A stretch of 20,316 nucleotides of DNA from a virus. The translations under genes and the position numbers were made by a program. Where the stretch lies: the IMG/VR virus record IMGVR_UViG_3300047468_000065, positions 1 through 20,316 of that record; one strand, given 5' to 3'. The notes under the pieces were generated by a model, which was not told the DNA's origin, did no database searches, and saw only the letters and a program-made list of their open reading frames with translations. This document shows positions 1,132 through 19,582 of this stretch, one piece after another. The stretch's first letter is position 1, and every line of letters begins with the position of its first letter.

Positions 1132-1208
1132 CCACAGTGGACGCATGTCCCTGACCGGCGGCTCAGCACCCGACGGGACCAGCGCAGGACCACACTAGGT
1201 AGGTGGAA

Positions 1209-1517
1209 ATGAATCTGTCCGGGAAGCTCCCCGACGACGAGGTGAACGGCATGCACCGGGTGGCCCTCGACCTCGTCGAGGACCCGGCACAGGTCCGGCT
1301 GGCCGTCATCGAATACAACGTGTCCAAAGTGGTCACCGACATTGAGACGGGGGCCCGCACCCCGACGCTGCGGATTCTGCGCATCGAGCCGGTGGTGGAC
1401 CGCGACGAGGTGCTGCGGGTGTCGGCCCTGCTGGGTCGCGAACGTAACCGCCGCCACCACCGCGGCCCGCTGCCCGGTCAGCTGGACCTGCTGGACCCCG
1501 ATGTGGAGGTTGACTGA
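1209..1517 (+). CDS. Hypothetical protein
   Basis: ORF with high GC3. ATG 1209 (alternative GTG 1203) is preceded by AGGTAGGTGG. I recognise no motif. Confidence 0.55.
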   Translation: MNLSGKLPDDEVNGMHRVALDLVEDPAQVRLAVIEYNVSKVVTDIETGARTPTLRILRIEPVVDRDEVLRVSALLGRERNRRHHRGPLPGQLDLLDPDVEVD

Positions 1518-1518
1518 C

Positions 1519-1800
1519 ATGCCTGCCTGCAAGACGTGTCGCTGCACCATTTTCTGGGCGGTGTCCGCCTATGACCGGCCCATGCCGGTGGACCTGGCCC
1601 CCTCACCCCGCGGCAACCTCGTGCCGGTCCGCGACGACCGGGACCGGGTGGCGCGCGACGCGCAGGGCCGCCCGTACCTGCGGGTCCTGAACGCCGCGCA
1701 GGTGGCCGCCTACCAGGGCCCCCGCTGGATCGGGCACTTCGCCACCTGCCCGCAGGCGCCCACGCACCGCAGCAGACCCCGGGCCCGGGTCGGATCATGA
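1519..1800 (+). CDS. Hypothetical Cys-rich protein, possible zinc finger (CxxC...H..C)
   Basis: ATG 1519 lies 1 nt after the upstream stop and is preceded by GGAGG at 1505-1509. The product begins MPACKTCRC and ends ...HFATCPQ. The ORF-track start at 1342 would overlap the previous gene extensively. Confidence 0.6.
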   Translation: MPACKTCRCTIFWAVSAYDRPMPVDLAPSPRGNLVPVRDDRDRVARDAQGRPYLRVLNAAQVAAYQGPRWIGHFATCPQAPTHRSRPRARVGS

Positions 1801-1982
1801 CCGGCCTACTGGCGGCGCTCGGGCTGGTGGCGGCGTTGGTGCGCCGGTGGTGGCGCGACGCGGTCACCGACCGGGTGGCCTGGCTGGTCGAGGACCTGCG
1901 CGGCAGCGACACGTCACCCTTTGACGACGACACCGCCCACTGGCTGGCCCCCTACCGGCACAAGATCGGCAGCAGTCGATAG
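1797..1982 (+). CDS. Small protein with one N-terminal hydrophobic (TM-like) segment
   Basis: ATGA overlap with the upstream gene. N-terminus LLAALGLVAALV followed by RRWWR. Confidence 0.5.
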   Translation: MTGLLAALGLVAALVRRWWRDAVTDRVAWLVEDLRGSDTSPFDDDTAHWLAPYRHKIGSSR

Positions 1983-2002
1983 CCCACTGAACGGAGAAAA
2001 CG

Positions 2003-2269
2003 ATGCCCGCCAACCCGCCCGACCTGTCCGAGGTCATCATCCGTGTGCACGCCTGCGGGTGTGTCACCGTCACCGGGCAGCTGCCCCCCAACGTCGTGGC
2101 CGGCACGCTGGCCATCGCGGCGCTACAGGTGGCCACCCACCCCGCCGGTATCACCACCGGGCACTACCCGTGCAACGACGGCACCACCGCCAACGCCGCC
2201 GACGGGCAGGTGGTCCGGGAACTGATCGCCGAAAGGTTCCTGCAGCCGCTGCGCAACCGGACCGCCTGA
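2003..2269 (+). CDS. Hypothetical protein
   Basis: GGAG sits 6 nt upstream of ATG 2003. High GC3. Confidence 0.6.
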   Translation: MPANPPDLSEVIIRVHACGCVTVTGQLPPNVVAGTLAIAALQVATHPAGITTGHYPCNDGTTANAADGQVVRELIAERFLQPLRNRTA

Positions 2270-2272
2270 AAG

Positions 2273-2292
2273 GACCACTGTGGACACCCCCG
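2273..2292 (+). repeat. Exact 20-bp direct repeat, copy 1 (gaccactgtggacacccccg)
   Basis: Identical to 9274-9293. It spans the GTG start codon of gene 2280..2795. Confidence 0.9.
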
Positions 2293-2795
2293 ACATTCCC
2301 CACACCCCCGACGGTGTGCTGGTCCTGGTGGTCACCGACCACGCCGCCCTGCTGACCCGGCTGCCCCGGTCCCTGGACGCCTACCGTTCCGTGATCGGCG
2401 GCGGCTGGCTGGAAGGCCTGTACCCGGCGGTCTACCAGGTCAACGACCGGGCCCTACCGCCGTGGCGCGCCTACTGCGACGAGGACGGACTAGTCAAAGG
2501 CCTACCGCGCAACCTCACCGCCACCCGGCTGGCCCGCGCCGCCGGCTGGACCCGGGAAGAGTTCCTGCACGGGCCGGTCATGTTCATCGGCGACCGGCGC
2601 GACGATGACGGTGACGTGCCGGCGCCGCTGGTCACCCTGGCCCGCGCGTTCATCACCATGCCCGAGGACCCCTACTGGTGCCGGGGCTGCGGCCAGGTCG
2701 CATGGCACCCCAACGACTCCCGACTGGGCTACTGCGCCACCTGCCACACCTACGCGGTAGACGCCGACACGTCAAGATCAGCCGGGACTGACTAG
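2280..2795 (+). CDS. Hypothetical protein, possibly DUF3846-like, with a C-terminal CxxC...CxxC tail
   Basis: GTG start preceded by AAAGGA. The central pattern (GGGWLEGL...YCDEDGLVKGLPRNLTATRLA...HGPVMFIGD) resembles my recollection of the DUF3846 family. The C-terminus has CRGCG...CATCH. Confidence 0.45.
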   Translation: MDTPDIPHTPDGVLVLVVTDHAALLTRLPRSLDAYRSVIGGGWLEGLYPAVYQVNDRALPPWRAYCDEDGLVKGLPRNLTATRLARAAGWTREEFLHGPVMFIGDRRDDDGDVPAPLVTLARAFITMPEDPYWCRGCGQVAWHPNDSRLGYCATCHTYAVDADTSRSAGTD

Positions 2796-2834
2796 CGCTC
2801 GCCAACCATCGACGTACCGAAAGGAGTGGGCCCC

Positions 2835-3656
2835 ATGGTTACCCGCGACGACGTCATGCGGCGTACTGGGCTATGGCCCATCAACTCAGTGCCCTACTCA
2901 CAGAGCGGTTACAACTCCCCCACCGGCCACCGGCAGGACTGTTCCGGCTACGCCTCCATGTGCCTGGACCTCCCGACCCCCGGGTACTCCACCGTTTCCT
3001 TTGTCACCAACGGGGTGGTGTACGAGATCGGGTGGGAGGAAATCCAGCCCGGTGACCTCATCGGACACATGGGTGAGGGCACCGGCGGCAACGGTGGACA
3101 CGTCCGCGTCTACAAGGGACGGACCCCCGACGGCGGTTGGCAGTGGTATGAGCAGGCGGTCGGATCGACCGGACCCGACCTGACGACAGCGTCCGAGGTG
3201 GACACTGACTGGTACCGGGCATACAGGTTCGTAGATATCGAGGAGGATGGCATGGGATTCGAGGAGTGGTCAGCGTCCAACCCCGACGCGCAAGCATCAT
3301 GGGCCCTGACTCAGGGCAGCGAAGGGTATGCGGGTCACCAACGCGATACCGCGCTGGCGTTCACGTGGGAGAGCGCGAACAACGCCAACAACCGACTGTC
3401 CAGATTGGAGCCCGTGGTTGCCCTCGCGTCCGTCGCTGCCATCCTGGGCGCGGTGTTCTCTGCGCTGGCCTACCTGCCCGAGGATGCGGCCACCTGGGCC
3501 GTTCCGGCTGCCGGCGTGCTGGGCTTCATCGCCATCGTTTCGATCCTCGTCTACATCTTCACGAACCGCTACGGTACGAGCCCCGCCCCACCAATGCCCC
3601 CCAACGACCGGACCCGCCTGGTCACCTCGACCGGCGCGCCTCGTCGGCGGGACTAG
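2835..3656 (+). CDS. NlpC/P60-like cysteine peptidase (endolysin) with two C-terminal transmembrane segments
   Basis: AAGGAG at 2821-2826 lies 8 nt upstream of ATG 2835 (the ORF track begins at GTG 2826). Catalytic-type motifs DCSGY, PGDLIGH and GGHVRVY are present. Two hydrophobic segments of about 21 aa lie at nt ~3411-3476 and ~3498-3560. Confidence 0.7.
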   Translation: MVTRDDVMRRTGLWPINSVPYSQSGYNSPTGHRQDCSGYASMCLDLPTPGYSTVSFVTNGVVYEIGWEEIQPGDLIGHMGEGTGGNGGHVRVYKGRTPDGGWQWYEQAVGSTGPDLTTASEVDTDWYRAYRFVDIEEDGMGFEEWSASNPDAQASWALTQGSEGYAGHQRDTALAFTWESANNANNRLSRLEPVVALASVAAILGAVFSALAYLPEDAATWAVPAAGVLGFIAIVSILVYIFTNRYGTSPAPPMPPNDRTRLVTSTGAPRRRD

Positions 3657-3742
3657 GCCCGCGTCCATCGTCAGGAAAGTTTGACCGCACACATTAGACG
3701 CTCAGCCGGGACCACCGGCACCGTTGGAAAGGAAGGCAAGAC

Positions 3743-3910
3743 ATGACAACGCAACAGGTCAACCCCGGCGGGGACCAGCCCGACCCGGCCACGCCCGACC
3801 CGGCCACGCCGGACCCGGCCACGCCCGACCCGGGCACCCCGGACCCGGCCACGCCCGACCCGGGCACCCCGGACCCGGGCACCCCCGACGCGGTGGCGTC
3901 GCTGCGGTGA
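3743..3910 (+). CDS. 55-aa repeat microprotein (seven PDP(A/G)T repeats), translationally coupled to the methyltransferase
   Basis: GGAAAGGAAGG lies upstream of ATG 3743. This frame has much higher GC3 than the overlapping frame of ORF 3724. Its TGA (3908-3910) overlaps GTG 3907 of the next gene. It is below the size cutoff of the supplied ORF track. Confidence 0.6.
   Translation: MTTQQVNPGGDQPDPATPDPATPDPATPDPGTPDPATPDPGTPDPGTPDAVASLR
3779..3889 (+). repeat. 15-bp tandem repeat, about 7.4 copies (cccgacccggccacg and variants)
   Basis: Seven consecutive 15-nt units were read directly. The variants differ at 1-3 positions (ccc/ccg, gcc/ggc, acg/acc). Confidence 0.9.
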
Positions 3911-4431
3911 CCGTGCAGGACCCGCTGTTTGCGCTGACCGGTGACGACGTGGCGCTGACCACCGACGAGTGGTACACCCCGCGGTGGATCTTTGCCGCCG
4001 CGGCGTTGACCTTCGACCTCGACGTCGCTGCCCCGGTGTCACCGGTCCTGCGTACCTGCCCGGCCCTGCACCACCTGACCGCCGCCGACGACGGGCTGAC
4101 CAGCCCGTGGTCGGGGGTGGTGTGGATGAATCCGCCCTACAGCAAAGCCGCCCCATGGGTGGACCGGTGGGCCGCCCACCCTGACGGGCTGGCCCTGCTG
4201 CCGGCCCTGCCCGAGGTGACCTGGTCCGGTGTGCTGCTGTCGGCAGCACACACCGTGTGCCTGCTGGGTGTCACGTTCGGGCGGCCCGACGGTAGTCAGG
4301 CCCGGCTGCGCTGGCCCTGCCTGCTCGTCGGGCGCGGGTCCGCCGCCCCGGCGGTGGCGCGGGTGGCCGCCGCCGACCCCTACCGGCGCGGTGCGTACCA
4401 CGTCCACCCGGACTGGACCGGCCCCCGCTGA
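3907..4431 (+). CDS. Phage Dam-type DNA N6-adenine methyltransferase (orphan)
   Basis: DEWYTPRWIF plus the catalytic NPPYS motif, as in the phage N-6-adenine methyltransferase family. I placed the start at GTG 3907 (alternative 3913). The upstream part of ORF 3724 has low GC3 and is better explained by the repeat microprotein frame. Confidence 0.7.
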   Translation: MTVQDPLFALTGDDVALTTDEWYTPRWIFAAAALTFDLDVAAPVSPVLRTCPALHHLTAADDGLTSPWSGVVWMNPPYSKAAPWVDRWAAHPDGLALLPALPEVTWSGVLLSAAHTVCLLGVTFGRPDGSQARLRWPCLLVGRGSAAPAVARVAAADPYRRGAYHVHPDWTGPR

Positions 4432-4560
4432 CCCCCCGTTTTTCGTGGCCGCCGGGGGTGGCGGAAGCCCCGCGGCTGCCCGATCTCTCCCCCCTTCGAC
4501 CGGGGCACCCCTCGAAAATCTCAAGATCACAAACGGCAGTCACAAGATCGAGGAGTGAAC

Positions 4561-4848
4561 ATGTCTGAACCGGACCAGGAAGAACAGGCCGCCCACTACA
4601 TGACCACCATCGACCGGGCCCACGCTGAGATAGCGCGCCTGGACGCGGTCATGCGCGACATGGACCTGACCGAGGTGGCACCCGCCGACCAGCTGACGAT
4701 GGGTCTGCAGATGTCGATGGCGCTGTGCATGCTGGCCGCCGCCGAGGCGGTCATTGACCTGTCGCTGAGTGTTGACGCCGACCAGCCGGCTGGCCGCCAC
4801 GAGGCGCGCTGGACGGTACCGCAGCGCCGACCCGCTACCTACGTGTGA
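4561..4848 (+). CDS. Hypothetical protein
   Basis: GAGGAG at 4550-4555 lies 5 nt upstream of ATG 4561. High GC3. Confidence 0.55.
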   Translation: MSEPDQEEQAAHYMTTIDRAHAEIARLDAVMRDMDLTEVAPADQLTMGLQMSMALCMLAAAEAVIDLSLSVDADQPAGRHEARWTVPQRRPATYV

Positions 4849-4851
4849 CCG

Positions 4852-5244
4852 GTGGGCCGGCGACGCGACCCGCCCCCGGACCAGACGCCACTGTTCGCGC
4901 CTGGCCCGGTCCGGAAAGGTCGCGTCGAGGTGGCCGTCGACAAGGCGGTCACCGCCGGCTACCGCGACGACGTGGTGTCGGCGGCGTTGGACGCCGGCAT
5001 GGTGGCCCTGGCCCGCACCCTGGCCCGGCAGCTGGACCACGCCGCCCGCACCGTTGACCCGTGGGCCCTTTCCCGGCTGTCGGGGGAACTGCGCGCCGTG
5101 CTGGGTCAGCTGCGGCTGGACCCGACCAGCCGGGGCGGAATGCGCCGCGACGAGTTCGCTGACCTGATAGCCACCCTGGCCCGGCCCACTCTTGCCGCAC
5201 CGGGCGGGCCCGATGACGACACCGCGCCACCACACCCGGCGTAG
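4852..5244 (+). CDS. Putative terminase small subunit
   Basis: It sits immediately upstream of and overlaps the large terminase. It is a small helical Ala/Arg/Leu-rich protein (ALARTLARQLD...LSGELRAVLGQLRL), typical of actinophage TerS. The call rests on position and resemblance only. Confidence 0.45.
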   Translation: MGRRRDPPPDQTPLFAPGPVRKGRVEVAVDKAVTAGYRDDVVSAALDAGMVALARTLARQLDHAARTVDPWALSRLSGELRAVLGQLRLDPTSRGGMRRDEFADLIATLARPTLAAPGGPDDDTAPPHPA

Positions 5245-6637
5245 CCCGGACCGGCCCACGTTCGGGCCCGCCGTGGCCACGCTGGGCGCGGCGCTGGGCA
5301 CCCCTTTCATGCCGTGGCAGCGCCGGGCGGTGGACGTGGCGCTCGAGGTGGACCCGGCCACCGGTGAGCCGGCCTACTCCACCGTCGTGCTGCACGTCCC
5401 CCGGCAGGCCGGTAAGACGACGATCATCCTGCCGGCGTCGCTGCACCGGTGCCTCACCAACGCCGACGTCTGGACGTGGTACACCGCGCAGAAACGGGCC
5501 GACGCCAGGGACACCTTCCTTAAGCAACTCAAGGCGGTACGGCGGTCCCCGCTGCGACCGCCCCGGTCGAAGCTTCGGGAGTCCAACGGGTCAGAACGTA
5601 TCGAGTTCCCCGTCACCGGTTCCACGTACGGGCTGTTCGCACCCAGCGACGACGCGATGCACGGCAAAGCCAACGCGATGGTGACGGTGGATGAGGGCTG
5701 GTCCTTCGACGAGGTCCGCGGTCGGGAACTGCTGCAGGGAATCCTGCCCACGTTCTCCACTGTGGCCGGCCAGCTGTGGATCATTTCCGCCGGTGGCACC
5801 GCCGCGTCCACCTGGCTGCACGCCTACATCGAACGGGGCCGGGCCGCGGTGGCCGCCGACCGCCGGGAAGGGTTGTGCTTCATCGACTACGGCGTACCCG
5901 ACCGCACCAAACCCGAAGACGTCACCGTCGACATGGTGATGGCCCACCACCCGGCGTCGGGGTACACGCTGCGGCGCCGGGCTGTGCAGGACGCTGCCGA
6001 ACAGATGGACGCCGGAGAGTTTGCTCGCGCGTACGGCAACGTCTGGACCACCACCCCTGAGTACGCCATTGACCAGAACGCATGGCGGACCGCGGCGGCC
6101 CGGGTGGAACTGCCCGCCCCCGGTGGCGTAGCGCTGGCCTTCGACGTGGCGCTGGACGGCGCAGACGCCACCATCGCCGCCGCGTGGCGCCGCCCCGACA
6201 CCGGCGGCGTGCACGCCGAGATCGTGCACCACGACCGCGGGTCGCTGTGGGTCCCGGACCGGGTCATCGCCGCGGTTGACCGGTGGTCGCCGGTGGGCAT
6301 CGGCTACGACACCCGCGGCCCGTCCCCCGACGTCGCGGACAAGGTGGCCCGCGGCGGTCACATGCTGCTGCCCACCGGGTCCCGGGACATGGCCGCCGCG
6401 TCGGCGGCGCTGCTGGCCGACGTGCTGGCCGCCCCGCCCCGGTTCACCTACACCCCGCACCCGGCGCTGGACGCCGCCGCCGCCGCCGCGGCCCGCCGCG
6501 ACCTCGGCGACGCCTGGACGTGGGGCCGCCGCGCATCGGCGGCGTCGATCTCACCGCTGATAGCGGTCACCCTGGCCGCCTGGTGGCTGGACCACGCCCC
6601 GGTGGAACCGGAACCGGAACGGTTCGAGATCCTGTGA
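5213..6637 (+). CDS. terL: Terminase large subunit
   Basis: FMPWQRRAV followed by the Walker A-like PRQAGKTT. Size and position are right for TerL. The start is uncertain (ATG 5213, TTG 5192 or GTG 5273). Confidence 0.85.
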   Translation: MTTPRHHTRRSPDRPTFGPAVATLGAALGTPFMPWQRRAVDVALEVDPATGEPAYSTVVLHVPRQAGKTTIILPASLHRCLTNADVWTWYTAQKRADARDTFLKQLKAVRRSPLRPPRSKLRESNGSERIEFPVTGSTYGLFAPSDDAMHGKANAMVTVDEGWSFDEVRGRELLQGILPTFSTVAGQLWIISAGGTAASTWLHAYIERGRAAVAADRREGLCFIDYGVPDRTKPEDVTVDMVMAHHPASGYTLRRRAVQDAAEQMDAGEFARAYGNVWTTTPEYAIDQNAWRTAAARVELPAPGGVALAFDVALDGADATIAAAWRRPDTGGVHAEIVHHDRGSLWVPDRVIAAVDRWSPVGIGYDTRGPSPDVADKVARGGHMLLPTGSRDMAAASAALLADVLAAPPRFTYTPHPALDAAAAAAARRDLGDAWTWGRRASAASISPLIAVTLAAWWLDHAPVEPEPERFEIL

Positions 6638-6669
6638 CACACCCACATCCGTCGCAGTGATCGGCTACG

Positions 6670-7983
6670 ATGCGCCACCCCGGGTCGTACGCTTCACCCG
6701 TGACCGTGCCTTATGCCAGCCTCGGCGGCGCCGGGCCGCCGGTGTGGAGTCCGTACGCGACCCAGCCGTTCAACCGGATCGTCTGGCCCCACGAGGCGTG
6801 GGCGGTCGCCGAACAGATGCCGTTGGTGTGGGACGCGGCGACCGCCAGGAAACTGCCGTCGGTGGCCCGCGCCCTGCAGGTCTACACCGGCATGTCCAAA
6901 CAGATGCCAATGGACGCCTACCGCGGCATTCAACCGCTGCCCCGGCCCCGGCTGCTGGAACAACCCGACCCGACCCGGGGCCGCGGCTGGTTCGTGCAGG
7001 TCCAGATAGAGGACTATCTGCTGCACGGCAACGCGCTGGCCCTCATCACCGCCCGCGACCCGGCTGGCTGGCCCACCGCGGTGGCGTGGATTCCGGCCTA
7101 CTGGTGCGCCCTGGTGTGGGACCCCCGCGACCCGGCGGCGGTGGAGTACCGGCTGCGGTGGGACATGTCCACGAAGCTGGATGAACGCAACGTGATTCAC
7201 GTCCGGCGCGGCGCCGACCCGTGGTGCCCGCCCCGGGGCGTTGGCGTCGTCGAGGAACAGCTGCGCACCCTGGACAAGGTAGGCCGCCAGGACGAGTACG
7301 AACGGTCCACCATGGCCGGCGCCGCCATACCGTCGGTGGCGGTGGTGACCCCCAACCCGCGGCTGAGTCAGGAAGAAGCCGACGAGGGCAAAGCCACCTG
7401 GATGGAGAAGTACGGCGGCGTGGGCCGCCGGCCCGGCATCTTCCCGGCCGGGACCGTGGTCACCCCGCTGTCGTGGTCACCGTCGGACTCCCAGCTGGTC
7501 GAGGCCCGTCAGCAGTCGTTGGTGGACGTGGCGAACATGTTCAACCTGGACGGGTACTGGCTGGGCGCGCCGGGCGCGACGATGACCTACAAGTCGCCGG
7601 GCCCGATGTACCTGAACCTCATACGCATGTCGATCAATCCGGTGCTGGGTGACTTCGAGGACGTCTGGTCATCGATGCTGCTGCCCCGCGGCCAGCGGGT
7701 CGCGTTCGACCGGGCCGCGGTGCTGGGCGAGGACTTCCTCACCACCATGGCCGGACTCAAGATCGCTGTAGAGACAGGGCTCAATACGCGCGACGAGGCG
7801 CGGGTCTACCTGAACCTGCCGGTGCTGGGCGGGGCCATTCCGCAGGTCGGGCCGCTGGCGCCGCCGCTGGCCGAACCTGACGACGCGGCCCTGCTGGACG
7901 CTGACTCAGCTGCCGACGGTGACGACCCGGCGGCGTTGGACCCGGTCGACCCGGGTGAGGAACAGAAAGAGGTACCGGTATGA
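6670..7983 (+). CDS. Portal protein (HK97 family-like)
   Basis: 437 aa, located directly after TerL and before the prohead protease. It has an acidic C-terminus. Overall similarity to HK97-type portals is recalled by eye. Confidence 0.8.
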   Translation: MRHPGSYASPVTVPYASLGGAGPPVWSPYATQPFNRIVWPHEAWAVAEQMPLVWDAATARKLPSVARALQVYTGMSKQMPMDAYRGIQPLPRPRLLEQPDPTRGRGWFVQVQIEDYLLHGNALALITARDPAGWPTAVAWIPAYWCALVWDPRDPAAVEYRLRWDMSTKLDERNVIHVRRGADPWCPPRGVGVVEEQLRTLDKVGRQDEYERSTMAGAAIPSVAVVTPNPRLSQEEADEGKATWMEKYGGVGRRPGIFPAGTVVTPLSWSPSDSQLVEARQQSLVDVANMFNLDGYWLGAPGATMTYKSPGPMYLNLIRMSINPVLGDFEDVWSSMLLPRGQRVAFDRAAVLGEDFLTTMAGLKIAVETGLNTRDEARVYLNLPVLGGAIPQVGPLAPPLAEPDDAALLDADSAADGDDPAALDPVDPGEEQKEVPV

Positions 7984-8696
7984 CTGCGCCCCGCGGCCCC
8001 GTACGGCGGGGCAACGCACCCGAGGTCCGGCTCTATGAACGGGCCCTGACCCTGGTGGACACCGACACCACCGACTCACTGTCCTTTCTGGAAGGTCGGG
8101 CGGTGCCCTACGGGCAGATGACCGACACCGGCTGGTGGTACCTCGAGGAAATGGACGCCGGTCTGTTCAATGCGTCCACCGACGCGCACCCCGACCTGCC
8201 GCTGCTGCTGTTCCACAATGGACGAAGCTTTCCGATCGGGGTGGCCGACGAGTGGCGCGACGCCAATGACGGGCTACACGGAATCTGGCGGCTGGACCGT
8301 GACTCACCCGAGGCGCAGCGCGCCGCCCGGCAGGCCCGCGACGGTTTCCTTACCGGCATGTCGGTCGGCTTCGCGCCGATCAAGTCGGAATGGACCTACG
8401 CCGATTGGGAGGCGTGGGACCCCGAGGACCCGGCCACCTATGACCAGGTGCACCGGCAGGAGGCGCGGCTGTTGGAAACGTCCCTGACCCCCACGCCGGC
8501 CTACGCCGACGCGCAGGTGGCGCTGGTCCGTTCGGTGGAAGGGCGCCGGGCTGGACCAGGTCGGGCCGGCGCCGGGCGCGGTGTGCGGACCCGCCACACC
8601 GCGCTCAACCGGGCCGCGGCCCTGCCCGCGGCCCGGTCTGACACGCCGGGAACGCCGTACCTGGACTACTGGCGCGAACGTCTGCGTACCCTGTAA
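7980..8696 (+). CDS. HK97-family prohead protease (peptidase S78)
   Basis: ATGA overlap with the portal gene. Motifs LLLFHNGRSFPIG, NDGLHGIWRL and GMSVGF...ETSLTPTPAY match the S78 His/Ser pattern. Confidence 0.85.
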   Translation: MTAPRGPVRRGNAPEVRLYERALTLVDTDTTDSLSFLEGRAVPYGQMTDTGWWYLEEMDAGLFNASTDAHPDLPLLLFHNGRSFPIGVADEWRDANDGLHGIWRLDRDSPEAQRAARQARDGFLTGMSVGFAPIKSEWTYADWEAWDPEDPATYDQVHRQEARLLETSLTPTPAYADAQVALVRSVEGRRAGPGRAGAGRGVRTRHTALNRAAALPAARSDTPGTPYLDYWRERLRTL

Positions 8697-8866
8697 GGCG
8701 TACCGCCCCCCGTTCCGTTCCCCCGTGATGGTGGACGCGGTGACGAGTGACCGGTCGGACCGCCCCCCGGGACCCGCCGGCACTCGTCACCACCTCCGAC
8801 CAGGTCACGGGCCGGCCTGACCGTTCGGGTCTGTTGGCATACCCCCGAACGGATCGAGGCATCCCC

Positions 8867-10105
8867 ATGGCCAACCCTGTGCTCGATCGGCTGCTGGCCG
8901 ACCGGGACAAGCAGAACGAACTAGCCGACGCCATCATGACCATGGCCCAGCAGGATGGCCGGGACCTGGTCAAGTCCGAACGGGACAACCTTGAGGCCAT
9001 CGGCCAGCGACTGTCCGAACTGGACGAACAGATCAAGCCGATCTCTGAGTTCGAGGCGCTGCGCAACTCCGCCGCGTCAGAACAGGCCCGGCAGCTGGGC
9101 CGCCGTGACGGCGCCCCGACCACCACCGGCCAGGCCAGCGGTGTGACCGCCGCCTACCGCAGCGCCGGTGCGTTCCTCGTGGACTACGTCCGGGCCCGGG
9201 ACCCGAAAGCCGACCCGGCGGAACGGGCCCACGCCGCCGACCGGGTGGCGCAGACCCGGGTGGTTGAGCACCAGACCACTGTGGACACCCCCGGTCTGCT
9301 GCCCGTCCCCGTCGTCGGTGAGGTCATCAACCTCGTCGACGCGTCGCGCCCGTTCATCACCTCGATCGGCCCGAAGGACATGGGAGGCATTCCGGGTAAG
9401 AGGTTCCAACGCCCGATCGTCACCCAACAGCCGCTCGTCGGTAAGCAGGCGGCGGAGAAGACGGAACTCCCCACCCGCAAGATGATCATCGGGTCGCTGG
9501 AATGGACCAAGGAAACATACGGCGGGGTGGTAAATATTTCCCGCCAGGACATTGACTGGACCAGCCCGTCAGCGTGGGACATCCTCGTTCAGGCGTTGGC
9601 GGACCAGTACGCCATCGCCACCGAGAACGCTGCCGGCGACGCGTTCGCCGCGTCTGTCATCCAGACGTGGGCCGCTGAGTCGGCTGACCTGACCGGCTAC
9701 GCGCAGGCGCTGTACGCCGCCGCCGCGCAGGCCTACCAGGGCTCGTCCAAACTGCCTGACCGCATCTGGGTGAGCCTGGACATGTGGGCGCTGCTGGGCC
9801 CGATCACCGACGTGCTGGGCCGGCTGACGTTCAACGGCGGCAGCGACGGCGCCGGGTCCTCGTCGGTGTCGGACTTCCGCGGAGACATGCTCGGTCTGGA
9901 CCGGGTCGTCGTCCCGTCCTTCCCCGTCGGCACCATGATCGTGGGCAACCACACCCTGTACGAGTTCTACGAAGATCGAATTGGGCTCCTGAGTGCTGTA
10001 GAGCCAGCGATCCTCGGGGTGGAGGTTGCCTACGGCGGGTACGTAGCCCACGGATCGGTGGAACCAAAGGGCTTCGCGAAGGTCACGTCGCCGCCCGCAC
10101 CCTGA
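8867..10105 (+). CDS. Major capsid protein (HK97 fold) with an N-terminal coiled-coil delta/scaffolding domain
   Basis: The N-terminus (MANPVLDRLLADRDKQNELADAI...LSELDEQIKPISEFEALR) is coiled-coil-like, followed by a capsid body of about 300 aa. There is no separate scaffold gene. A strong hairpin lies just downstream. Confidence 0.85.
   Translation: MANPVLDRLLADRDKQNELADAIMTMAQQDGRDLVKSERDNLEAIGQRLSELDEQIKPISEFEALRNSAASEQARQLGRRDGAPTTTGQASGVTAAYRSAGAFLVDYVRARDPKADPAERAHAADRVAQTRVVEHQTTVDTPGLLPVPVVGEVINLVDASRPFITSIGPKDMGGIPGKRFQRPIVTQQPLVGKQAAEKTELPTRKMIIGSLEWTKETYGGVVNISRQDIDWTSPSAWDILVQALADQYAIATENAAGDAFAASVIQTWAAESADLTGYAQALYAAAAQAYQGSSKLPDRIWVSLDMWALLGPITDVLGRLTFNGGSDGAGSSSVSDFRGDMLGLDRVVVPSFPVGTMIVGNHTLYEFYEDRIGLLSAVEPAILGVEVAYGGYVAHGSVEPKGFAKVTSPPAP
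9274..9293 (+). repeat. Exact 20-bp direct repeat, copy 2 (gaccactgtggacacccccg)
   Basis: Identical to 2273-2292. It lies inside the capsid gene and encodes (Q)TTVDTP(G). Confidence 0.9.
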
Positions 10106-10118
10106 CCGCCGCCGGGTC

Positions 10119-10152: not shown

Positions 10153-10182
10153 CCCGCCCACGCACAGAAAGGGGGGCCCGCG

Positions 10183-10407: not shown

Positions 10408-10408
10408 C

Positions 10409-11151: not shown

Positions 11152-11170
11152 AACGGAAGGGAACGCACCC

Positions 11171-11608
11171 ATGTCGCAACCGACGCCACCCACCGCAACG
11201 AAGCTGGGCCCCGGCCTGCTGACCATCGGCGACACCGGCACGCTGATGGACATCTCGTGCCGACTGTCCGCGGCCAAAGTCGAATGGGACAAGGACAAAG
11301 AGGACGACGTGCCGGTCCTTTGTGGAGACACGATCGCCGGTGCCACCACCTACACGTCGAAGCTGACCGGCACGATCGCGCAGGACCTGCACGACCCCGA
11401 GGGACTGGTCAACTACAGCTGGGAACACAAGGGCGAACAGGTCCCGTTCGTGTTCGTGCCCTCCACCGCCGCCGGCCAGCAGGTCACCGGCACGTTGATT
11501 CTTGACCCGCTGGACGTGGGCGGGGACGAGGTCAAGAAGAACATGATGTCGGACTTTGAGTGGGACATCGTCGGGGACCCGGTCCTCGGCGCGTACGTCC
11601 CGGTCTAG
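11171..11608 (+). CDS. Major tail (tube) protein, putative
   Basis: GGAAGGGA lies upstream of ATG 11171. The 145-aa sequence pattern (LGPGLLTIGDTG...LTGTIAQDL...VPFVFVPS...GTLILDPLDVGG) resembles small siphovirus tail tube proteins. Confidence 0.5.
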   Translation: MSQPTPPTATKLGPGLLTIGDTGTLMDISCRLSAAKVEWDKDKEDDVPVLCGDTIAGATTYTSKLTGTIAQDLHDPEGLVNYSWEHKGEQVPFVFVPSTAAGQQVTGTLILDPLDVGGDEVKKNMMSDFEWDIVGDPVLGAYVPV

Positions 11609-11616
11609 GCCCGGCC

Positions 11617-11997
11617 ATGCCCGAACCGGTGGTGCAGGTCGAGGGACGCAAAGAGTTGGTGGCCAGCATGAAGGCCGCCGGTGTGGCGTTGACCGACCTG
11701 AACAAGGCGAACCTGGCCGCCGCGCAGGTGGTCAGTCCCGTCGCTGCCGGCAGGGCGCCGCGGCGGTCCGGGCGGCTGGCCGCGTCGGGCCGCCCCGCCG
11801 GCACCCGCGCCGCCGCCCTCATCCGCTTCGGCGGCGCCGCCGTCCCGTACGCCGGGCCGGTCCACTTCGGCTGGCCCGGTCGCAACATCGCCCCGCAGCC
11901 CTTCGCCGTCGAGGCCGCGCACAGTACCGAACCACAGTGGACAGAGGTCTACCGCGCCGCGGTGGACGACATCATCGAGAAAGTCAAAGGAGTGTGA
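11617..11997 (+). CDS. HK97 gp10-like head-tail joining protein
   Basis: The pattern AGRAPRRSGRLAASGR...AVPYAGPVHFGWPGRNIAPQPF matches the gp10-like family signature (TG.L..S......YA..VEFG). ATG 11617 lies 9 nt after the upstream stop. Confidence 0.6.
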   Translation: MPEPVVQVEGRKELVASMKAAGVALTDLNKANLAAAQVVSPVAAGRAPRRSGRLAASGRPAGTRAAALIRFGGAAVPYAGPVHFGWPGRNIAPQPFAVEAAHSTEPQWTEVYRAAVDDIIEKVKGV

Positions 11998-12003
11998 CGT
12001 CCG

Positions 12004-12336: not shown

Positions 12337-12443
12337 TCGTCGCAATCGCGTTGGCGACCCAGACCTCACCGGCCCAGTGGTGGGACGAGGACGACGCGAC
12401 GATCGCCACCGCCCTGGAACTGCTGGACACCGAGGGGGACTAG
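12333..12443 (+). CDS. Small ORF in the -1 frame of the chaperone (candidate gpT-like extension or an independent 36-aa peptide)
   Basis: ATGA overlap at 12333-12336. The -1 frame is open from 12267. It ends in TAG, which overlaps the GTG start of the tape measure by 1 nt. High GC3. The sequence includes WWDEDDATIATALELLD. Confidence 0.4.
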   Translation: MIVAIALATQTSPAQWWDEDDATIATALELLDTEGD

Positions 12444-14053
12444 TGGCCGGTAGCGCAATCCTGCAAATCAAGATCCTGGCCGACGCGGCGCAGGCTGCTA
12501 AGACGTTCCAAGACTCAGCCGGTGAGGCATCCAAATTTGCCGCCGGCATGCGGTCCGCGGCCCTGCCGGCGTTGGCGGTGGGCGCGGCGCTGGGTGTGAT
12601 GGCCAAGAGCGCCGCCGAGGACGCGCAGGCGCAGACGATGCTGGCCAACTCGTTGACCAACGCCACCGGCGCCACCGCCGCGCAGGTAGCCGCCGTCGAG
12701 GACTGGATCACCAAAACCACCCTGGCCAGCGGCGTCGCCGACGACGTGCTGCGCCCCGCTATGGCGACCCTGGCCCGCGCCACCGGTGACGTGTCCACCG
12801 CGCAGGCGGCCATGGCCACGGCGATGGACGTATCCGCCGCCACCGGCAAACCGCTTGAGACTGTCGCCGATGCCCTGGCGAAGGGCTACGCCGGCAACAC
12901 CGGCGCGCTGGGCAGGCTGGTCCCTGGTCTGGACTCGGCGGTACTGGCCACAAAGGACATGACCGCTATCACCGCGGAACTGTCCCGGCTGACCGGCGGC
13001 GCCGCCGCCGCCAACGCCGAAACGGCAGCCGGCAAGTTCCAACGCATGCAGGTTGCGCTGGCCGAAACGAAGGAGTCGATCGGCGCGGCGCTGCTGCCGG
13101 TGCTGGAACAGCTGGGCAGCAAGCTGGCGGTGGCCGCCGGGTGGGCCGCCAACAACGCCGGCATCATCCAGAAACTAGCCCTCGCGTTGGGCGCGGTCGC
13201 TGCCATCATCCTCGTTGTCAACGCCGGCATGGCCGCATACAACGCCATCATGACCGTCGTCCGGGTCGCGACCCTGGCGTGGACCGCCGTCCAATGGCTG
13301 CTGAACGTGGCGTTGACTGCCAACCCGATCGGCATCGTCATCGTTGTCATCGCCGCCCTCGTCGCGGCGATCGTGTTGGCGTACAAGCATTCGGAGACGT
13401 TCCGCAACATCGTTGCCGGTGCATGGGCCGGCATCCAGGCCGCCGCCTCGGCCACCTGGGATTTCCTCAAACCCGTATTCGAGTTCATCATCGGCTACTA
13501 CCGAATGCTGTGGAACGTGGCCCAGACCGCGGCGGCGTTCATCGTCGCCGCCTGGCGGGCCACTGTGGACGGTATCCAGTCCGCCTGGAACTGGATCAAG
13601 AAAGTGTTCGACGCCTACATCGAGGCGGTGCGCCTCATCATGACCCGCGCCGACGAGGTCCGAGACAACGTCGTGGCCGCCTTCCTCGACATGGGGCGGA
13701 AGGTGGTGGCGCCGTTCAAGGCCATCGGCGAAGCGATCAAGGAAGTCGTTGACTGGGTGGAGAAGTTCATCAACAAAGTGACAGGCTTCAAACTGCCCAG
13801 CTGGCTGACGTCGGGACTGTCCAGCATCGCCGGGGCCGTCGGGCTCTCCGTCGTGGCGGCCCCCGTGGTGAACGGGCGCGCCGCCCGCGCCGCCCCCACC
13901 GCTGGCGGGGCCCGCGCCCAACAGTCGCTGAACCTGCAAGTCGACGTGTTCCTTGACGGGCAACGGATGCGCGGCTACGTAGACCGCGTCGTGACCAGCC
14001 ACCTCGAGGCCGACGGCGCCGTGCTGGCCGCCGGGGCATGGGGCACAGGATGA
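12443..14053 (+). CDS. Tail tape measure protein (short, about 536 aa)
   Basis: Ala-rich helical N-terminal half, a central block of hydrophobic segments (ALALGAVAAIILVVNAGMAAY..., IGIVIVVIAALVAAIVLAY) and W/F-periodic repeats. Its position is right for a tape measure. The start at GTG 12443 abuts the upstream stop. Confidence 0.8.
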   Translation: MAGSAILQIKILADAAQAAKTFQDSAGEASKFAAGMRSAALPALAVGAALGVMAKSAAEDAQAQTMLANSLTNATGATAAQVAAVEDWITKTTLASGVADDVLRPAMATLARATGDVSTAQAAMATAMDVSAATGKPLETVADALAKGYAGNTGALGRLVPGLDSAVLATKDMTAITAELSRLTGGAAAANAETAAGKFQRMQVALAETKESIGAALLPVLEQLGSKLAVAAGWAANNAGIIQKLALALGAVAAIILVVNAGMAAYNAIMTVVRVATLAWTAVQWLLNVALTANPIGIVIVVIAALVAAIVLAYKHSETFRNIVAGAWAGIQAAASATWDFLKPVFEFIIGYYRMLWNVAQTAAAFIVAAWRATVDGIQSAWNWIKKVFDAYIEAVRLIMTRADEVRDNVVAAFLDMGRKVVAPFKAIGEAIKEVVDWVEKFINKVTGFKLPSWLTSGLSSIAGAVGLSVVAAPVVNGRAARAAPTAGGARAQQSLNLQVDVFLDGQRMRGYVDRVVTSHLEADGAVLAAGAWGTG

Positions 14054-16771: not shown

Positions 16772-16775
16772 CCCG

Positions 16776-17003
16776 GTGCCCACCCCCGCGCAGGTCGCCA
16801 ACCGCCGCCAGCCGCCGCCCACCGAACGGCACTACCCGGCCACCGTCTCCGCGGTGGGTCCGCCGGTCACCGTCGCGCTCGAGCCGGGCGGCGCCCTCAC
16901 CACCGCGACCCCGCTGGACGGCGCCACCTACACCGTCGGTGCCCGCGTGCTGGTGCTGGTCACGTCGTTCGGTAACTACATCCTCGGGAGGACCACCCCA
17001 TGA
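16776..17003 (+). CDS. Small minor tail protein (75 aa), putative
   Basis: GTG 16776 lies 5 nt after the upstream stop. High GC3. The pattern ATVSAV...VTVALEPGG...YTVGARVLVL...ILG is common in small actinophage tail-module proteins. Confidence 0.45.
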   Translation: MPTPAQVANRRQPPPTERHYPATVSAVGPPVTVALEPGGALTTATPLDGATYTVGARVLVLVTSFGNYILGRTTP

Positions 17004-17623
17004 AAACCACGCCGACCTATGCGCTTCCCTATCCCGAATCCGGCGACCACACCCGAACGTGGGAGTACTGGCAGGGATTGGCCGACGCCGTCGACACGTT
17101 GCTGGCCAACCGGTTCGTGTCCGTCAATCCCGACGGGTCGATCAAAACGCCCGGCAGTAGCCGGCCTATTCCGTTCGCGCAGGTCGCCAACTACGTGAAC
17201 ACCGGCATTAACGGGAACTTCGTCATCAACACGATCACGTTCCCGGCTGGCCGCTTCACAGTGGCGCCGATGGTCACCGCGACGACCGACCACGTCGACT
17301 GTTTCGCTGGCGCGCAGGCCATCTCGGCCACCGGTTTTACGATCATGGGCCGGTCGGCCATCGGCGCCATTACCGCGGCGCTGAACATCTGGTACCACGC
17401 CATCCAGATGACACCGACCAGCGGCGTCGGCCTGGCCACCCTCGACGCGGCCCCGGGCGGCTACCTGGCCCAGACGGTGACCTGCCATGTGGCCGACTGC
17501 GCCAACGCAGGCGCCGCCCTATCGGTCTACGTGCCCACCGTCGACCCGGCAGGCGAACCGGTCACCGCCCCGACGATCGTGTGCGGTGTGTGTCAAGCAC
17601 CGATCACCGACATCGGTCCGTAG
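17000..17623 (+). CDS. Minor tail / putative receptor-binding protein
   Basis: GGGAGG lies upstream and there is an ATGA overlap. The N-terminal TYALPYPESGD...LADAVDTLL motif is typical of actinophage minor tail (fibre) proteins. It is the last gene of the tail module. Confidence 0.6.
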   Translation: MKTTPTYALPYPESGDHTRTWEYWQGLADAVDTLLANRFVSVNPDGSIKTPGSSRPIPFAQVANYVNTGINGNFVINTITFPAGRFTVAPMVTATTDHVDCFAGAQAISATGFTIMGRSAIGAITAALNIWYHAIQMTPTSGVGLATLDAAPGGYLAQTVTCHVADCANAGAALSVYVPTVDPAGEPVTAPTIVCGVCQAPITDIGP

Positions 17624-17654
17624 TGACGCGCCGCCGCGCCGCCGCCTAGGAGCG

Positions 17655-17682
17655 GTGTGCCCCGGTAACACCGTGGGCACAC
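17655..17682 (+). terminator. Hairpin downstream of the last tail gene (candidate terminator)
   Basis: gtgtgccc (17655-17662) pairs with gggcacac (17675-17682). An inner cggt/accg stem also forms, with one bulge. No U-tract. Confidence 0.45.
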
Positions 17683-17745
17683 ACCCCCCGCCGCCGGATA
17701 CCCCCGGCGTACGTTCTGACCCCCCGCGCCCGTGCTAGGTTGCGT

Positions 17746-17827
17746 TTTCCCTGGTCACGGGCCCGGGGGGTCGCCGATTCGATTCCCGGCACCTCCACCC
17801 TGCAAAAACGGTCCCTGACCAGGGAAA
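17746..17827. other. Candidate attP core region: a tRNA 3'-end-like segment flanked by a perfect 12-bp inverted repeat
   Basis: TTCGATTCCCGG + CACCTCC + ACC (17778-17799) reads like a T-loop, T-stem 3' strand, acceptor 3' strand and discriminator. It is flanked by tttccctggtca (17746-17757) and tgaccagggaaa (17816-17827). It lies about 140 bp upstream of int. Confidence 0.45.
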
Positions 17828-17936
17828 GTACAGAACGCGCTGTGCCCCGGTGATCCACTAGGGCCCCCTCGGGGGCACACATTGGACCGGGCACCGGGGT
17901 ACAGCGCGGTCATGTTCCTTCCCCTAGGAGTGATCG

Positions 17937-19241
17937 GTGCCGATGTTCAAGGTCAATATCCAGGCCAAACGGCTCGCGTCCGGGGCGGTCCGGCACGTGG
18001 TGCGGTGGCGCCCGCAGGGCACCTACGGGGCCCAGCGGGCGGTGCCGTTCGACGACCCCGGCCATGCCCGCCTGTACGCCGGCCTCGTCTACACCGCGCA
18101 GGCCGACCCCGACCCCGCGGTCCTGCGGGCGGCAGGCCTCGGCTTCCTCCTGGGTCCTGCGGACGGCAGCTGGACCGACGCCGCCCGCGGGCCCGTAGCC
18201 GCCACCGCCGCCGGGCCCACCCTGCTGGACGCCTGCGCGGCGTATCTGGCCACCCGGACGTCGGTGCAACCGGACACCCTGGACGGGTACCGCACCCTCG
18301 TCCGCCGCCACGTTGCGCCGTGGGCGGCCATGGTCGGAAATCCGCCCCTCGCAGAGGTCCACCGGGCTGACCTGGCCGCCTGGCAGGCGTGGGCGGTGGC
18401 CCGCGGCGCGTCAGCGAAAACGGTCAAGAATGTCAAGGTGGCGGTGCTGGGTCCGGTGTTCAAGCGGGCCACCTGGCGCGGCGATGAGGGCCAGCCGCCG
18501 CTGCGTACGGACAACCCGCTCGTCGGGCTGGACCCGCCCCGCGCCGGGCGGGCCCGGACCCGCCGCGCCGTGGTGGAGGGCGCCGACGCGGTGACGTTCT
18601 TCGCCGCCGCCTACCGGGTCAACGCCGACGCTGCCGACGTGCTGCTGGCCGCCGCCGCGCTCGGCCTGCGCCGCGGGGAGGTCACCGGCCTGTGCGCCGA
18701 CATGGTGGACCTGGACCGGGGCGTGGTGTACGTGACCCGGGTGGCCCGCCGGCAGGGCACCGGGGCGCCCCGCGGCCAGTCCCGGCGCCTCGAACCGGGC
18801 GGCAAGTCCGACGCCGCCGACCGGCCGGTCCCGATCCCCGCCGCCGTGCTCCCCATGTTCACCGCCCGGCTGGCCGCCGCCGCCGGGCCGGGCGGGCTGG
18901 TGTTCCCCAACGCCCGCACCGGCGGGCTGTGGCTGGGCACCGCGTGGCAGCGGTACATGACCCGGGTGCACACCGCCGCCGCCGCCGCCGGCCTCACCGC
19001 CCGGGTGACCGCCCACTCCTGGCGGCACATGTATAAGTCCGTACTGGCCGCCGGTGGGGTGGACCCGCACACCCAGAACGCCGCCCTCGGGCACACCGGC
19101 GCGTCCGGTGACCCGTACTTCCACGCCACCGGCCCCGGCTTCGCCGCGGTCCGGGCCGCCGCCGCCGGCCACGTCACCGCCCTGGCCGCGCTGCGACCCG
19201 CGTCTCACCCGGCCACCACTGTGGACACTGCCGCCGCCTGA
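17937..19241 (+). CDS. int: Tyrosine recombinase (phage integrase)
   Basis: AGGAG at 17926-17930 lies upstream of GTG 17937 (alternative ATG 17943). There is a SAM-like N-terminal domain. Catalytic-type motifs are GLRRGE, HSWRH, LGH and a C-terminal Tyr (DPYFH). Confidence 0.85.
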   Translation: MPMFKVNIQAKRLASGAVRHVVRWRPQGTYGAQRAVPFDDPGHARLYAGLVYTAQADPDPAVLRAAGLGFLLGPADGSWTDAARGPVAATAAGPTLLDACAAYLATRTSVQPDTLDGYRTLVRRHVAPWAAMVGNPPLAEVHRADLAAWQAWAVARGASAKTVKNVKVAVLGPVFKRATWRGDEGQPPLRTDNPLVGLDPPRAGRARTRRAVVEGADAVTFFAAAYRVNADAADVLLAAAALGLRRGEVTGLCADMVDLDRGVVYVTRVARRQGTGAPRGQSRRLEPGGKSDAADRPVPIPAAVLPMFTARLAAAAGPGGLVFPNARTGGLWLGTAWQRYMTRVHTAAAAAGLTARVTAHSWRHMYKSVLAAGGVDPHTQNAALGHTGASGDPYFHATGPGFAAVRAAAAGHVTALAALRPASHPATTVDTAAA

Positions 19242-19255
19242 CCAGCCGGTCAGCA

Positions 19256-19560: not shown

Positions 19561-19582
19561 CGGGTGAACGGGAGCACCGCCC

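Follow-up and report, generated by a model that had tools for sequence, protein, structure and literature searches.

A co-oriented 11-mer dispersed through one small actinobacterial phage genome, and what may read it

Short words that a phage carries on one strand only are known from few systems, the stoperators, the T5 and tf nick sites, and Chi, and their origin is little understood. Stoperators are, to our knowledge, present in all Cluster A phages, and some of the L5-type stoperators overlap start or stop codons. The L5-type repressors have more than 20 oriented 13-mers as binding sites and block elongation in one orientation only, and the word varies between immunity groups (PMC9283540). 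Here we analyze the 11-mer CCACWGTGGAC in the IMG/VR virus record IMGVR_UViG_3300047468_000065, a stretch of 20,316 nucleotides (the window) that is the complete genome of a small temperate siphovirus of a high-GC actinobacterium. Because positions 1–120 recur exactly as 20197–20316, a 120-bp overlap, the window is a contig that closes into a circle of 20,196 bp, and its credible genes, about 28 in total, are all on the + strand as judged by third-position G+C.

In Pseudomonas phage tf, 14 copies of TACT/RTGMC (mostly TACTGTGAC) lie on the top strand only of a 46-kb genome; the consensus has a two-fold degenerate base, its relatives have a variant of the word and differ in their number of sites, and nickase and sites are proposed to co-evolve (PMC3517423). 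The nick-site words of tf, of the phiKMV-like phages (CGACxxxxxCCTA/CTCCGG), and of T5 are in each case found on one strand only, are 9–19 nt long, occur in 4–14 copies (about one per 3 kb in tf), have one degenerate position, and differ between relatives (PMC3517423). In mycobacteriophage D29 the MerR/BldC-like protein Gp36 binds GC-rich repeats and represses downstream genes (PMC12266134). Chi and KOPS/SRS words are over-represented and co-oriented, are placed where coding allows at about one per 3–5 kb, and are host-specific. The start-associated sequences of Cluster K and the 17-bp palindromes of Cluster O are cluster-specific short repeats whose function is not known. The word described here works like such phage-specific, strand-oriented short words, but for each of these named families it lacks one or more of the testable defining features. 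What we observe is that its sites exist, are co-oriented, are present far beyond chance, and have been made by substitutions against codon preference.

The word and its seven sites

Six copies of CCACWGTGGAC had been read by eye in the original prediction at 1132, 2275, 9276, 11932, 13560, and 19216; all six are there, on the + strand, with none on the – strand, and the additional CCACWGTGG core claimed at 5757 is likewise present, giving seven cores in all, every one of them on the + strand. The sites are as follows.

Site 1, 1132..1142, + strand: CCACAGTGGAC (13-mer GACCACAGTGGAC), at the 5' end of the 77-nt gap before ATG 1209
Site 2, 2275..2285, + strand: CCACTGTGGAC (13-mer GACCACTGTGGAC), covering the start codon, GTG 2280, of the DUF3846 gene
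Site 3, 9276..9286, + strand: CCACTGTGGAC (13-mer GACCACTGTGGAC), in the major capsid gene, read ACC ACT GTG GAC ACC (TTVDT)
Site 4, 11932..11942, + strand: CCACAGTGGAC, in the tail-region gene 11560–11997, read CCA CAG TGG ACA (PQWT), 55 nt before the end of the open reading frame (ORF)
Site 5, 13560..13570, + strand: CCACTGTGGAC, in the tape-measure gene, read GCC ACT GTG GAC (ATVD)
Site 6, 19216..19226, + strand: CCACTGTGGAC, 15 nt before the end of the integrase (int) ORF and upstream of a hairpin at 19264–19291
Site 7, core only, 5757..5765, + strand: CCACTGTGG followed by CC, in the large terminase gene, read TCC ACT GTG GCC

The distances from gene boundaries given earlier are correct, in that site 1 begins at the next base after the TGA of the small HNH endonuclease gene (HNH2), site 2 covers GTG 2280, and the distances of sites 4 and 6 from their ORF ends are those listed. 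By our count, three of the seven sites are at gene boundaries. The shorter strings TCACAGTGG at 17256 and GACCACGTGGAC at 11–22 also exist as described; the string GACCACGTGGAC is found again at 20207–20218, but there it consists of the same bases as 11–22 in the circular contig and is not a separate copy.

As with the L5-type stoperators, a short asymmetric word (13 bp there; here six 11-mers with a 13-mer consensus, plus one core, in 20.2 kb) is dispersed over a temperate actinophage in one orientation relative to transcription (6/6 copies on the + strand, where all genes lie), with copies over start or stop codons. With its flanks the consensus is (G/A)A-CCACWGTGGAC-(A/G), or RACCACWGTGGAC-R in extended form. 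The earlier observation that a palindromic core is made asymmetric by its 3' AC holds, the 3' AC being invariant and the single orientation real. It is this 3' AC that forms the robust asymmetric element, because the 5' GA varies more and, of the two non-coding sites, falls on a stop codon at one and on a Shine-Dalgarno sequence at the other. The seven sites are spaced slightly more evenly than random (p ~0.05), while the spacing of the six full copies is not significant. When up to three mismatches are allowed only one near-copy is notable, GACCACTTTGGAC on the – strand at 1322–1334, which has 1 mismatch to the 13-mer and lies in the opposite orientation inside gene 1209–1517. A literature search for the word itself returned only primers and unrelated sequences.

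Read on the – strand, three of the sites are GTGTCCACA and one is CCGTCCACA, near the actinobacterial DnaA box TTGTCCACA; GTCCAC is invariant in 6/6 sites and three sites match the box at 8/9 positions. That the word is a set of DnaA boxes is nevertheless scarcely credible, since box-like 9-mers (≤2 mismatches) are not enriched (47 versus 40 expected), the only good box outside the motif is at 598, and both the four further invariant bases (CCAC on the + strand) and two T-ending sites would go unexplained. We rejected this explanation on the missing enrichment and the invariant bases beyond the box.

The counts exceed every null model used. CCACWGTGGAC is observed 6 times against a mean of 0.02 in 100 dinucleotide shuffles, and CCACWGTGG 7 times against 0.42. 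Synonymous-codon shuffles that preserve every protein and the codon usage of each gene, with the two boundary copies left unshuffled, give a mean of 2.14 copies (those two plus 0.14) and a maximum of 5, the observed 6 being reached in 0/3000. Related phage DNA (816,447 bp, 68.6% GC) contains a single copy of the 11-mer and seven of the 9-mer, or 0.025 and 0.17 per 20 kb, and the density of the 11-mer in the window is about 240-fold over these related genomes. As a genome-wide calibration, 11-mers were counted that have three or more A/T bases and occur in four or more dispersed copies; there are 2 of these in the window and, on average, 0.04 in shuffled genomes. It should be noted that the simple codon-shuffle null is too lenient here, because other rare-codon oligomers also exceed synonymous shuffles. 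The strongest argument is the count of compatible peptides, because it is independent of the null model. Specifically, the proteome contains five positions at which the peptide is compatible with the word (four [STPA]TVD and one P[QL]WT), and 4/5 encode the 11-mer, using the rare codons ACT (17/474 Thr codons), CCA, and ACA. ACT-GTG is used, as had been pointed out, in four in-frame copies (5757, 9276, 13560, and 19216). Hence the original proposal of selection on the DNA word and not on the protein is borne out by the codon shuffles, the rare codons, the peptide-position count, and the substitutions seen in the orthologue alignment. The word is real and not a product of chance.

The alternative of no function at all, in which codon-context bias and chance produced the word, draws on the oligomers CGTCGCTGC, GGCGTTGG, and CACCCTGGCC, which are also above synonymous shuffles, on ACT being followed by G in 13/17 cases, and on the frequency with which 11-mers of common codons are repeated in the relatives. 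Such a context bias spans at most 8–10 bases in one frame, however, whereas the word takes up 11–13 bases in two frames and in non-coding sequence; the repeated 11-mers that abound in these GC-rich genomes consist of the commonest codons. Non-synonymous changes were needed to make the word, 4/5 of the peptide positions are filled, and the excess over related genomes is ~240-fold, so that we consider a functionless word highly improbable.

The other oligomers are of some note in themselves. Rare codons occur in fixed contexts, GTC-GCT-GC and GCG-TTG-G as well as ACT before G. Above synonymous shuffles are six copies of CGTCGCTGC (e.g., 3431, 3897, 4023, 11739, and 16267) and seven of GGCGTTGG (e.g., 1832, 4983, 7932, 9592, 12568, and 14622). 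CACCCTGGCC occurs ten times, always on the + strand (2633, 5016, 5172, 6568, 12228, 12718, 14058, 14793, 15189, and 15573) and always in the frame xxC ACC CTG GCC (Thr-Leu-Ala), compared with 2.5 in synonymous shuffles and 0.7 per 20 kb in related genomes. It is also enriched in the relative L185 (6 in 14 kb), partly at orthologous positions, and may be a clade-level codon-context or DNA-level preference.

Origin of the sites and relatives that lack the word

The closest relatives are L185 (from ENA) and L186 (from Logan), with portal identities of 73–74% and large terminase identities of 79–80%, followed by L188 with a portal identity of 64%. L265 is from the L186 run and provides the remainder of that genome, including int, a winged helix-turn-helix (wHTH) protein orthologous to the one discussed below, the large and small HNH endonucleases (HNH1 and HNH2), g1209-like and g1516-like proteins, the DUF3846 protein, and the methylase, at 42–66% identity to the window. 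Joined, L186 and L265 give a sister genome that is nearly complete and whose gene set is almost that of the window. CCACWGTGG has zero copies in L185, in L186+L265, and in L188, and because sister genomes with the same gene set lack the word, the substitutions that created it can be read off copy by copy.

Four sites lie in conserved coding sequence and show no insertions or deletions relative to L185, L186, and L188 in codon alignments. At site 3, close to where the N-terminal (delta/scaffold-like) region meets the capsid fold, the relatives have ACC ACC GAC GAC ACC, and the word required one synonymous change and an Asp to Val replacement inside a conserved QTTxDTPG block. At site 4 the relatives have CCA CAA TGG ACC/ACG, and two synonymous changes (CAA to CAG, and ACC to the rare ACA) were sufficient. 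At site 5, where the relatives have G-I/L-K-A, the compatible peptide was itself made by non-synonymous changes. At site 7 the relatives have GCC ACC GTG GCC, and one synonymous C-to-T change to the rare ACT makes the core. Sites 1, 2, and 6, on the other hand, are in window-specific sequence at gene boundaries. The gap that begins with site 1 has 77 nt in the window versus 8 nt between the orthologous genes in L265. Site 2 sits 5 nt past a Shine-Dalgarno-like GAAAGGA, and the first ~8 residues of the DUF3846 protein (VDTPDIPH...), begun at the motif's own GTG, are an N-terminal extension that is not in the L265 orthologue. Site 6 is in a C-terminal integrase tail of ~10 residues (…ATTVDTAAA) that the integrases of L265, L264, and L188 do not have, and it precedes a 341-nt gap that leads to the early genes. 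With substitutions at four sites and window-specific sequence at three, the word has been built repeatedly, by different routes, in one lineage. The pattern fits selection for the number and orientation of the word on one strand, apparently not for its exact position.

Several readings of the individual sites were discarded. Transposon ends or footprints were rejected on inspection, as there are no insertions or deletions relative to the relatives. Internal translation starts at the in-frame GTG were rejected on inspection, as was TGGACA as a promoter –35 element, there being no conserved element downstream; a promoter reading of the word in general also falls, with no promoter-like site in the scan of the window and no conserved element downstream of the six copies. 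The promoter and terminator scan found nothing next to the motif copies.

All copies are in the sense orientation and three are at cistron boundaries, as would be expected of an element that acts in the mRNA, by processing, pausing, or binding. The 71-nt segments around six sites share no common structure, however (z from +1.7 to –2.2, with different pairing partners at each), and Rfam gave no hit; a 4+1+4 palindrome cannot form a hairpin alone, and processing would have no obvious use at the copy that lies 7 codons before the end of int. We think an RNA element very improbable.

The missing word is a wider property of the relatives. The motif is essentially absent from 63 portal-related viral contigs, two GTDB prophages, and the closest ENA and Logan relatives, and the contigs of the integrase homologues L264 and L265 (the best 52% identical) do not have it either. 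An IMG/VR scan for ACCACTGTGGACAC gave at least 118 contigs with one match each, which is chance. Positional conservation, to which the original prediction had looked, is thus not found, the word being missing at all orthologous positions. A de novo search of the relatives for enriched k-mers, for palindromes with spacers of 0–3 nt, and for 11-mers with one degenerate position returned only words of the commonest codons, such as CGAGCTCG and CGACGAGGTCG (Markov expectation ~2), besides the weak CACCGGGGCCAA. The latter is the best candidate of L186+L265, with four co-oriented copies (L186 2864, 7862, and 9877; L265 32), one of which abuts the attP core derived from transfer-messenger RNA (tmRNA); at a genome-wide p of ~0.04 against synonymous shuffles it could be a private word of that genome, or chance.

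The relatives also bear on a methylation or restriction motif, which the original prediction had listed as an alternative and which might, for example, be the target of the Dam-like N6-adenine methylase encoded at 3724–4431. The window does encode this NPPY methylase, and the word has adenines on both strands. Restriction-modification words, however, specify no more than 8 bases and are as a rule avoided rather than accumulated, and the present word, with more than 8 specified bases, does not travel with the methylase: L265 has a 60% identical orthologue and no motif, and a total of two cores occurs across 68 viral loci (849 kb) whose methylases are homologous, which is no enrichment. The alternative is weak, and we hold it to be very unlikely.

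Other features of the relatives are recorded here. The 8-bp palindrome CGAGCTCG is very strongly over-represented in the IMG/VR relatives L012, L025, L020, L010, L003, and L024, with counts of 49 versus 6.9 expected in L012 and 38 versus 5.4 in L025, and L040 is rich in CGAC-N3-GTCG (33 versus 7). L264, which has the 52% identical integrase, carries a – strand gene beside int (2728–3192), a possible repressor that is not in the window, and a YqaJ/RecT recombination pair at 6840–8560 of which the window also has no counterpart.

Candidate readers and modes of action

We tentatively put forward a mechanism in which CCACWGTGGAC would be a strand-oriented recognition site selected at the DNA level in one phage lineage. 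We infer a phage-encoded, sequence-specific DNA-binding protein that would bind the dispersed sites and, once bound, would act directionally on transcription through the co-oriented genome. The prophage would sit downstream of, and co-oriented with, the strongly expressed host tmRNA gene (ssrA), and read-through would be repressed in the manner of stoperators or of Cox/Gp36. Between the tail genes and int, at 17778–17799, lies the 22-nt 3' end of tmRNA (TTCGATTCCCGGCACCTCCACC, + strand), and this core is bracketed by a perfect 12-nt inverted repeat, TTTCCCTGGTCA / TGACCAGGGAAA (attP region 17746–17827). With 17778–17799 as attP, the phage therefore integrates into ssrA, co-oriented with it, and because attP is the tmRNA 3' end on the + strand, read-through from ssrA would enter the prophage. 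We place first the model of oriented sites that are dispersed over the genome and bound by a phage protein with an effect on transcription, because only it has actinophage precedents (the L5-type stoperators and Gp36), because all genes are co-oriented and the prophage would be directly downstream of ssrA, and because three sites are at cistron boundaries, of which one immediately precedes the early region. The length of 11–13 bp and the quasi-palindromic form, with the asymmetric 3' AC fixed, are suitable for binding by a protein. Even so, we regard these binding sites as possible and not as likely.

The best candidate for the reader is the putative DNA-binding wHTH protein encoded at 19583–19897. 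Its matches to HTH_17 (E 0.038) and to the excisionase family TIGR01764 (E 0.0096) are sub-threshold. The analysis concerns one uncultivated phage genome and the fold of this protein comes from a single-sequence AlphaFold model, with a predicted local distance difference test score (pLDDT) of 85–88 in the core, whose best PDB folds in Foldseek are Streptomyces BldC (6AMA/6AMK), mycobacteriophage Pukovnik Xis (4J2N), P2 Cox (4LHF), RacA (5I44), and RdfS (8DGL), with probabilities up to 0.99 but weak E-values of 0.05–0.4. The model thus suggests a Xis/BldC-like winged-helix fold, the only DNA-binding fold found. Some proteins of this class do more than assist excision: P2 Cox is a repressor as well as an excisionase, and the binding sites of RacA are about 25 dispersed inverted repeats, GC-rich and 14 bp long. 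D29 Gp36, BldC, P2 Cox, and RacA are alike in that they have a small MerR/Xis-like winged-helix fold, the fold class of the window's protein, and bind repeated words; Gp36 and BldC differ in that their targets are direct repeats at one or a few loci, whereas the 11-mers here occur singly and are spread through coding sequence. The wHTH protein is the most diverged of the shared early proteins (42–44% identity to the orthologues in relatives versus 73–80% for structural and head genes) and has otherwise no homologue among 5.8 billion proteins and none in IMG/VR, so that it might conceivably have a DNA specificity of its own. Apart from it, the two HNH endonucleases are obvious candidate readers. 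Among the remaining small proteins, the window-specific g2003 has no relatives in IMG/VR, and its AlphaFold model is unusable (pLDDT 45). Near the start of the wHTH gene there is a run of 15 C at 19596–19610 (coding for SPPPPR), and L265 has a 13-C run in the gap before the orthologue; the run in the window could be a slippage-prone switch or an uncertainty of the assembly.

A number of results weigh against dispersed binding sites that act on transcription. The Pfam, PHROGs, and NCBIfam searches found no CI-, Cro-, L5-type, or other repressor among the window's proteins. No copy or near-copy (≤3 mismatches) lies in 19242–19582, the only long gap (341 nt), where the early promoter would be expected, and 4/7 sites are inside conserved coding sequence. 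The half-site centers are ~5–7 bp apart, which is unusual for a helix-turn-helix dimer. Only one genome carries the word, the second contig with it (L267) being 100% identical, and L186+L265 has orthologues of the wHTH and HNH proteins, g1209, g1516, the DUF3846 protein, and the methylase, yet no copy of the word nor a clearly comparable motif. The filling of every cheap coding position, moreover, looks more like a genome-wide signal than like gene regulation. A repressor ORF running across attP on the – strand, as in integration-dependent immunity, or located between int and the wHTH gene was sought and rejected, the ORFs at 17646–17894 and 19353–19577 being Arg/Gly-rich nonsense.

The stoperator comparison made in the original prediction does not hold as a class assignment. 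In contrast to the L5-type systems, the window has no repressor that combines an N-terminal HTH with a stoperator domain, and it lacks promoter operators; three sites are at boundaries and four in conserved coding sequence, the core is palindromic, and the word is not shared by close relatives (7 cores in 816 kb). Membership in the stoperators fails, while a stoperator-like action is possible. The other actinophage repeats are no closer. Cluster K start-associated sequences lie just upstream of start codons and include the ribosome-binding site, a placement found here at 1/7 sites (site 2), and Cluster O palindromes are intergenic and common to the whole cluster.

It is also possible, though again not likely, that the word is an oriented genome-wide signal of this one lineage, read by a DNA-tracking or strand-specific enzyme, either a T5/tf-style nickase or, in the manner of Chi, an end-processing nuclease of the host. 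Neither was among the alternatives of the original prediction, and both account for the number, density, and orientation of the sites about as well. In the first case the sites would be targets of a phage-encoded site- and strand-specific nicking endonuclease, and the packaged DNA would have one-strand interruptions like that of T5, the phiKMV-like phages, and tf. The density is comparable (one per 2.9–3.4 kb here versus one per 3.3 kb in tf), the words are alike (tACTGTG-AC in tf and cACTGTGGAC in the window), and a location anywhere in coding sequence is to be expected. The window encodes two HNH endonucleases (19964–847 and 844–1131), and the HNH fold includes nickases, although a small HNH protein adjoining terminase is usually a packaging cofactor. 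The likeness of the words may be a coincidence, however, and localized nicks are known only from virulent phages of Gram-negative hosts, in which nicking has been shown, whereas the window is an assembled metagenomic contig. Nick-site positions are similar among the relatives in the LUZ24 group, but here the relatives have 56–62% identical HNH proteins and lack the word at all orthologous positions; both HNH endonucleases of the window have orthologues in a motif-less relative. Taking these points together, we judge nick sites to be unlikely.

In the second case the word would be a host-specific oriented signal for a DNA-tracking enzyme, either Chi-like, read by RecBCD or AdnAB from the free end of packaged or rolling-circle DNA, or KOPS-like. 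The phage would then gather the word wherever this is cheap, under selection for number and orientation and not for position, and the compatible peptide positions are indeed near-saturated (4/5), with a density of about one per 3 kb and the marginally even spacing of the seven sites. The absence of the word from relatives would be natural if these infect other hosts. Chi enrichment has been reported in temperate phages without recombination genes of their own, and the window, unlike the related element L264, has no RecT/YqaJ-type recombinase. A Chi-like signal best fits sites that are placed anywhere and fill every permissive position. Nevertheless, known Chi and KOPS words have 5–8 nt, are non-palindromic, and are defined by their abundance in the host chromosome, whereas the window has a fully specified 11-mer with a 9-bp palindromic core, which is all but absent from 816 kb of related actinophage and prophage DNA. 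We know of no Chi for Actinobacteria, and rate a Chi-like or KOPS-like signal as somewhat less probable still than nick sites. Methylation, an RNA element, DnaA boxes, and context bias jointly receive only a small share of the probability, and what is left belongs to something that we have not considered.

The window offers a clean case of the de novo evolution of a genome-wide DNA signal, with 4/5 coding positions filled, and the search space for the reader protein is small because the genome has 20 kb and only about 28 genes. If the sites impose a polar transcription block, stoperator-like silencing would extend beyond Cluster A and to another type of protein. If they are nick sites or a Chi-like signal, they would have no described precedent in phages of Actinobacteria, and any genome-wide oriented signal of this kind would be a dated example of signal birth, since sister genomes with the same genes lack the word.

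Gene map and further features of the genome

The window has ~70% G+C with a GC skew that falls steadily. Its proteins were annotated by searches of Pfam, PHROGs, and NCBIfam, and the main genes are listed below; further tail genes include those of a DUF4082 protein and a DUF5047 protein.

19964 to 847, across the contig junction, + strand: large HNH endonuclease (HNH1)
844–1131 (TGA 1129–1131), + strand: small HNH endonuclease (HNH2)
1209–1517, 1519–1800, 1797–1982, and 2003–2269, + strand: four small proteins without assigned function
2280–2795 (GTG start 2280), + strand: DUF3846 protein
2826–3656, + strand: NlpC/P60-like protein with membrane tail
3724–4431, + strand: Dam-like N6-adenine methylase with NPPY motif
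4852–5244 and 5192–6637, + strand: small and large terminase subunits
6670–7983, + strand: portal
7980–8696, + strand: prohead protease
8867 (true start) to 10105, + strand: major capsid protein
11560–11997, + strand: tail-region gene
12377–14053, + strand: tape measure
17937–19241, + strand: tyrosine integrase (int)
19583–19897, + strand: Xis/BldC-like winged-helix (wHTH) protein, 104 aa, first gene after int

The attP core did not point to a host, as it is a universal tmRNA 3' end that low-GC taxa match too. Many ~20-kb IMG/VR contigs are relatives at 50–55% portal identity, and because prophage relatives are found in an Aeromicrobium metagenome-assembled genome and in Microlunatus parietis, a host among the Propionibacteriales is probable. 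JGI sample 3300053074 also yielded this phage, as a 100% identical assembly (L267), and the portal of the window is present in Logan run SRR26077943.

The NlpC/P60-like cysteine peptidase (2826–3656), with its C-terminal membrane segment, is located among the early genes, away from the tail and lysis genes, and has no homologue in the relatives or in IMG/VR. There are two arrays of 15-nt tandem repeats, one at 3742–3908 in the 5' part of the methylase ORF (translated as PGHARPGH... in the frame called) and one at 710–799 in the C-terminal tail of the large HNH protein (PPGYDPPDYDPPGFD). Directly after int, 38 nt past site 6, the GC-rich hairpin at 19264–19291 (GGGCCCCGACCG-N4-CGGTCGGGGCCC) is likely a terminator without a T-run.

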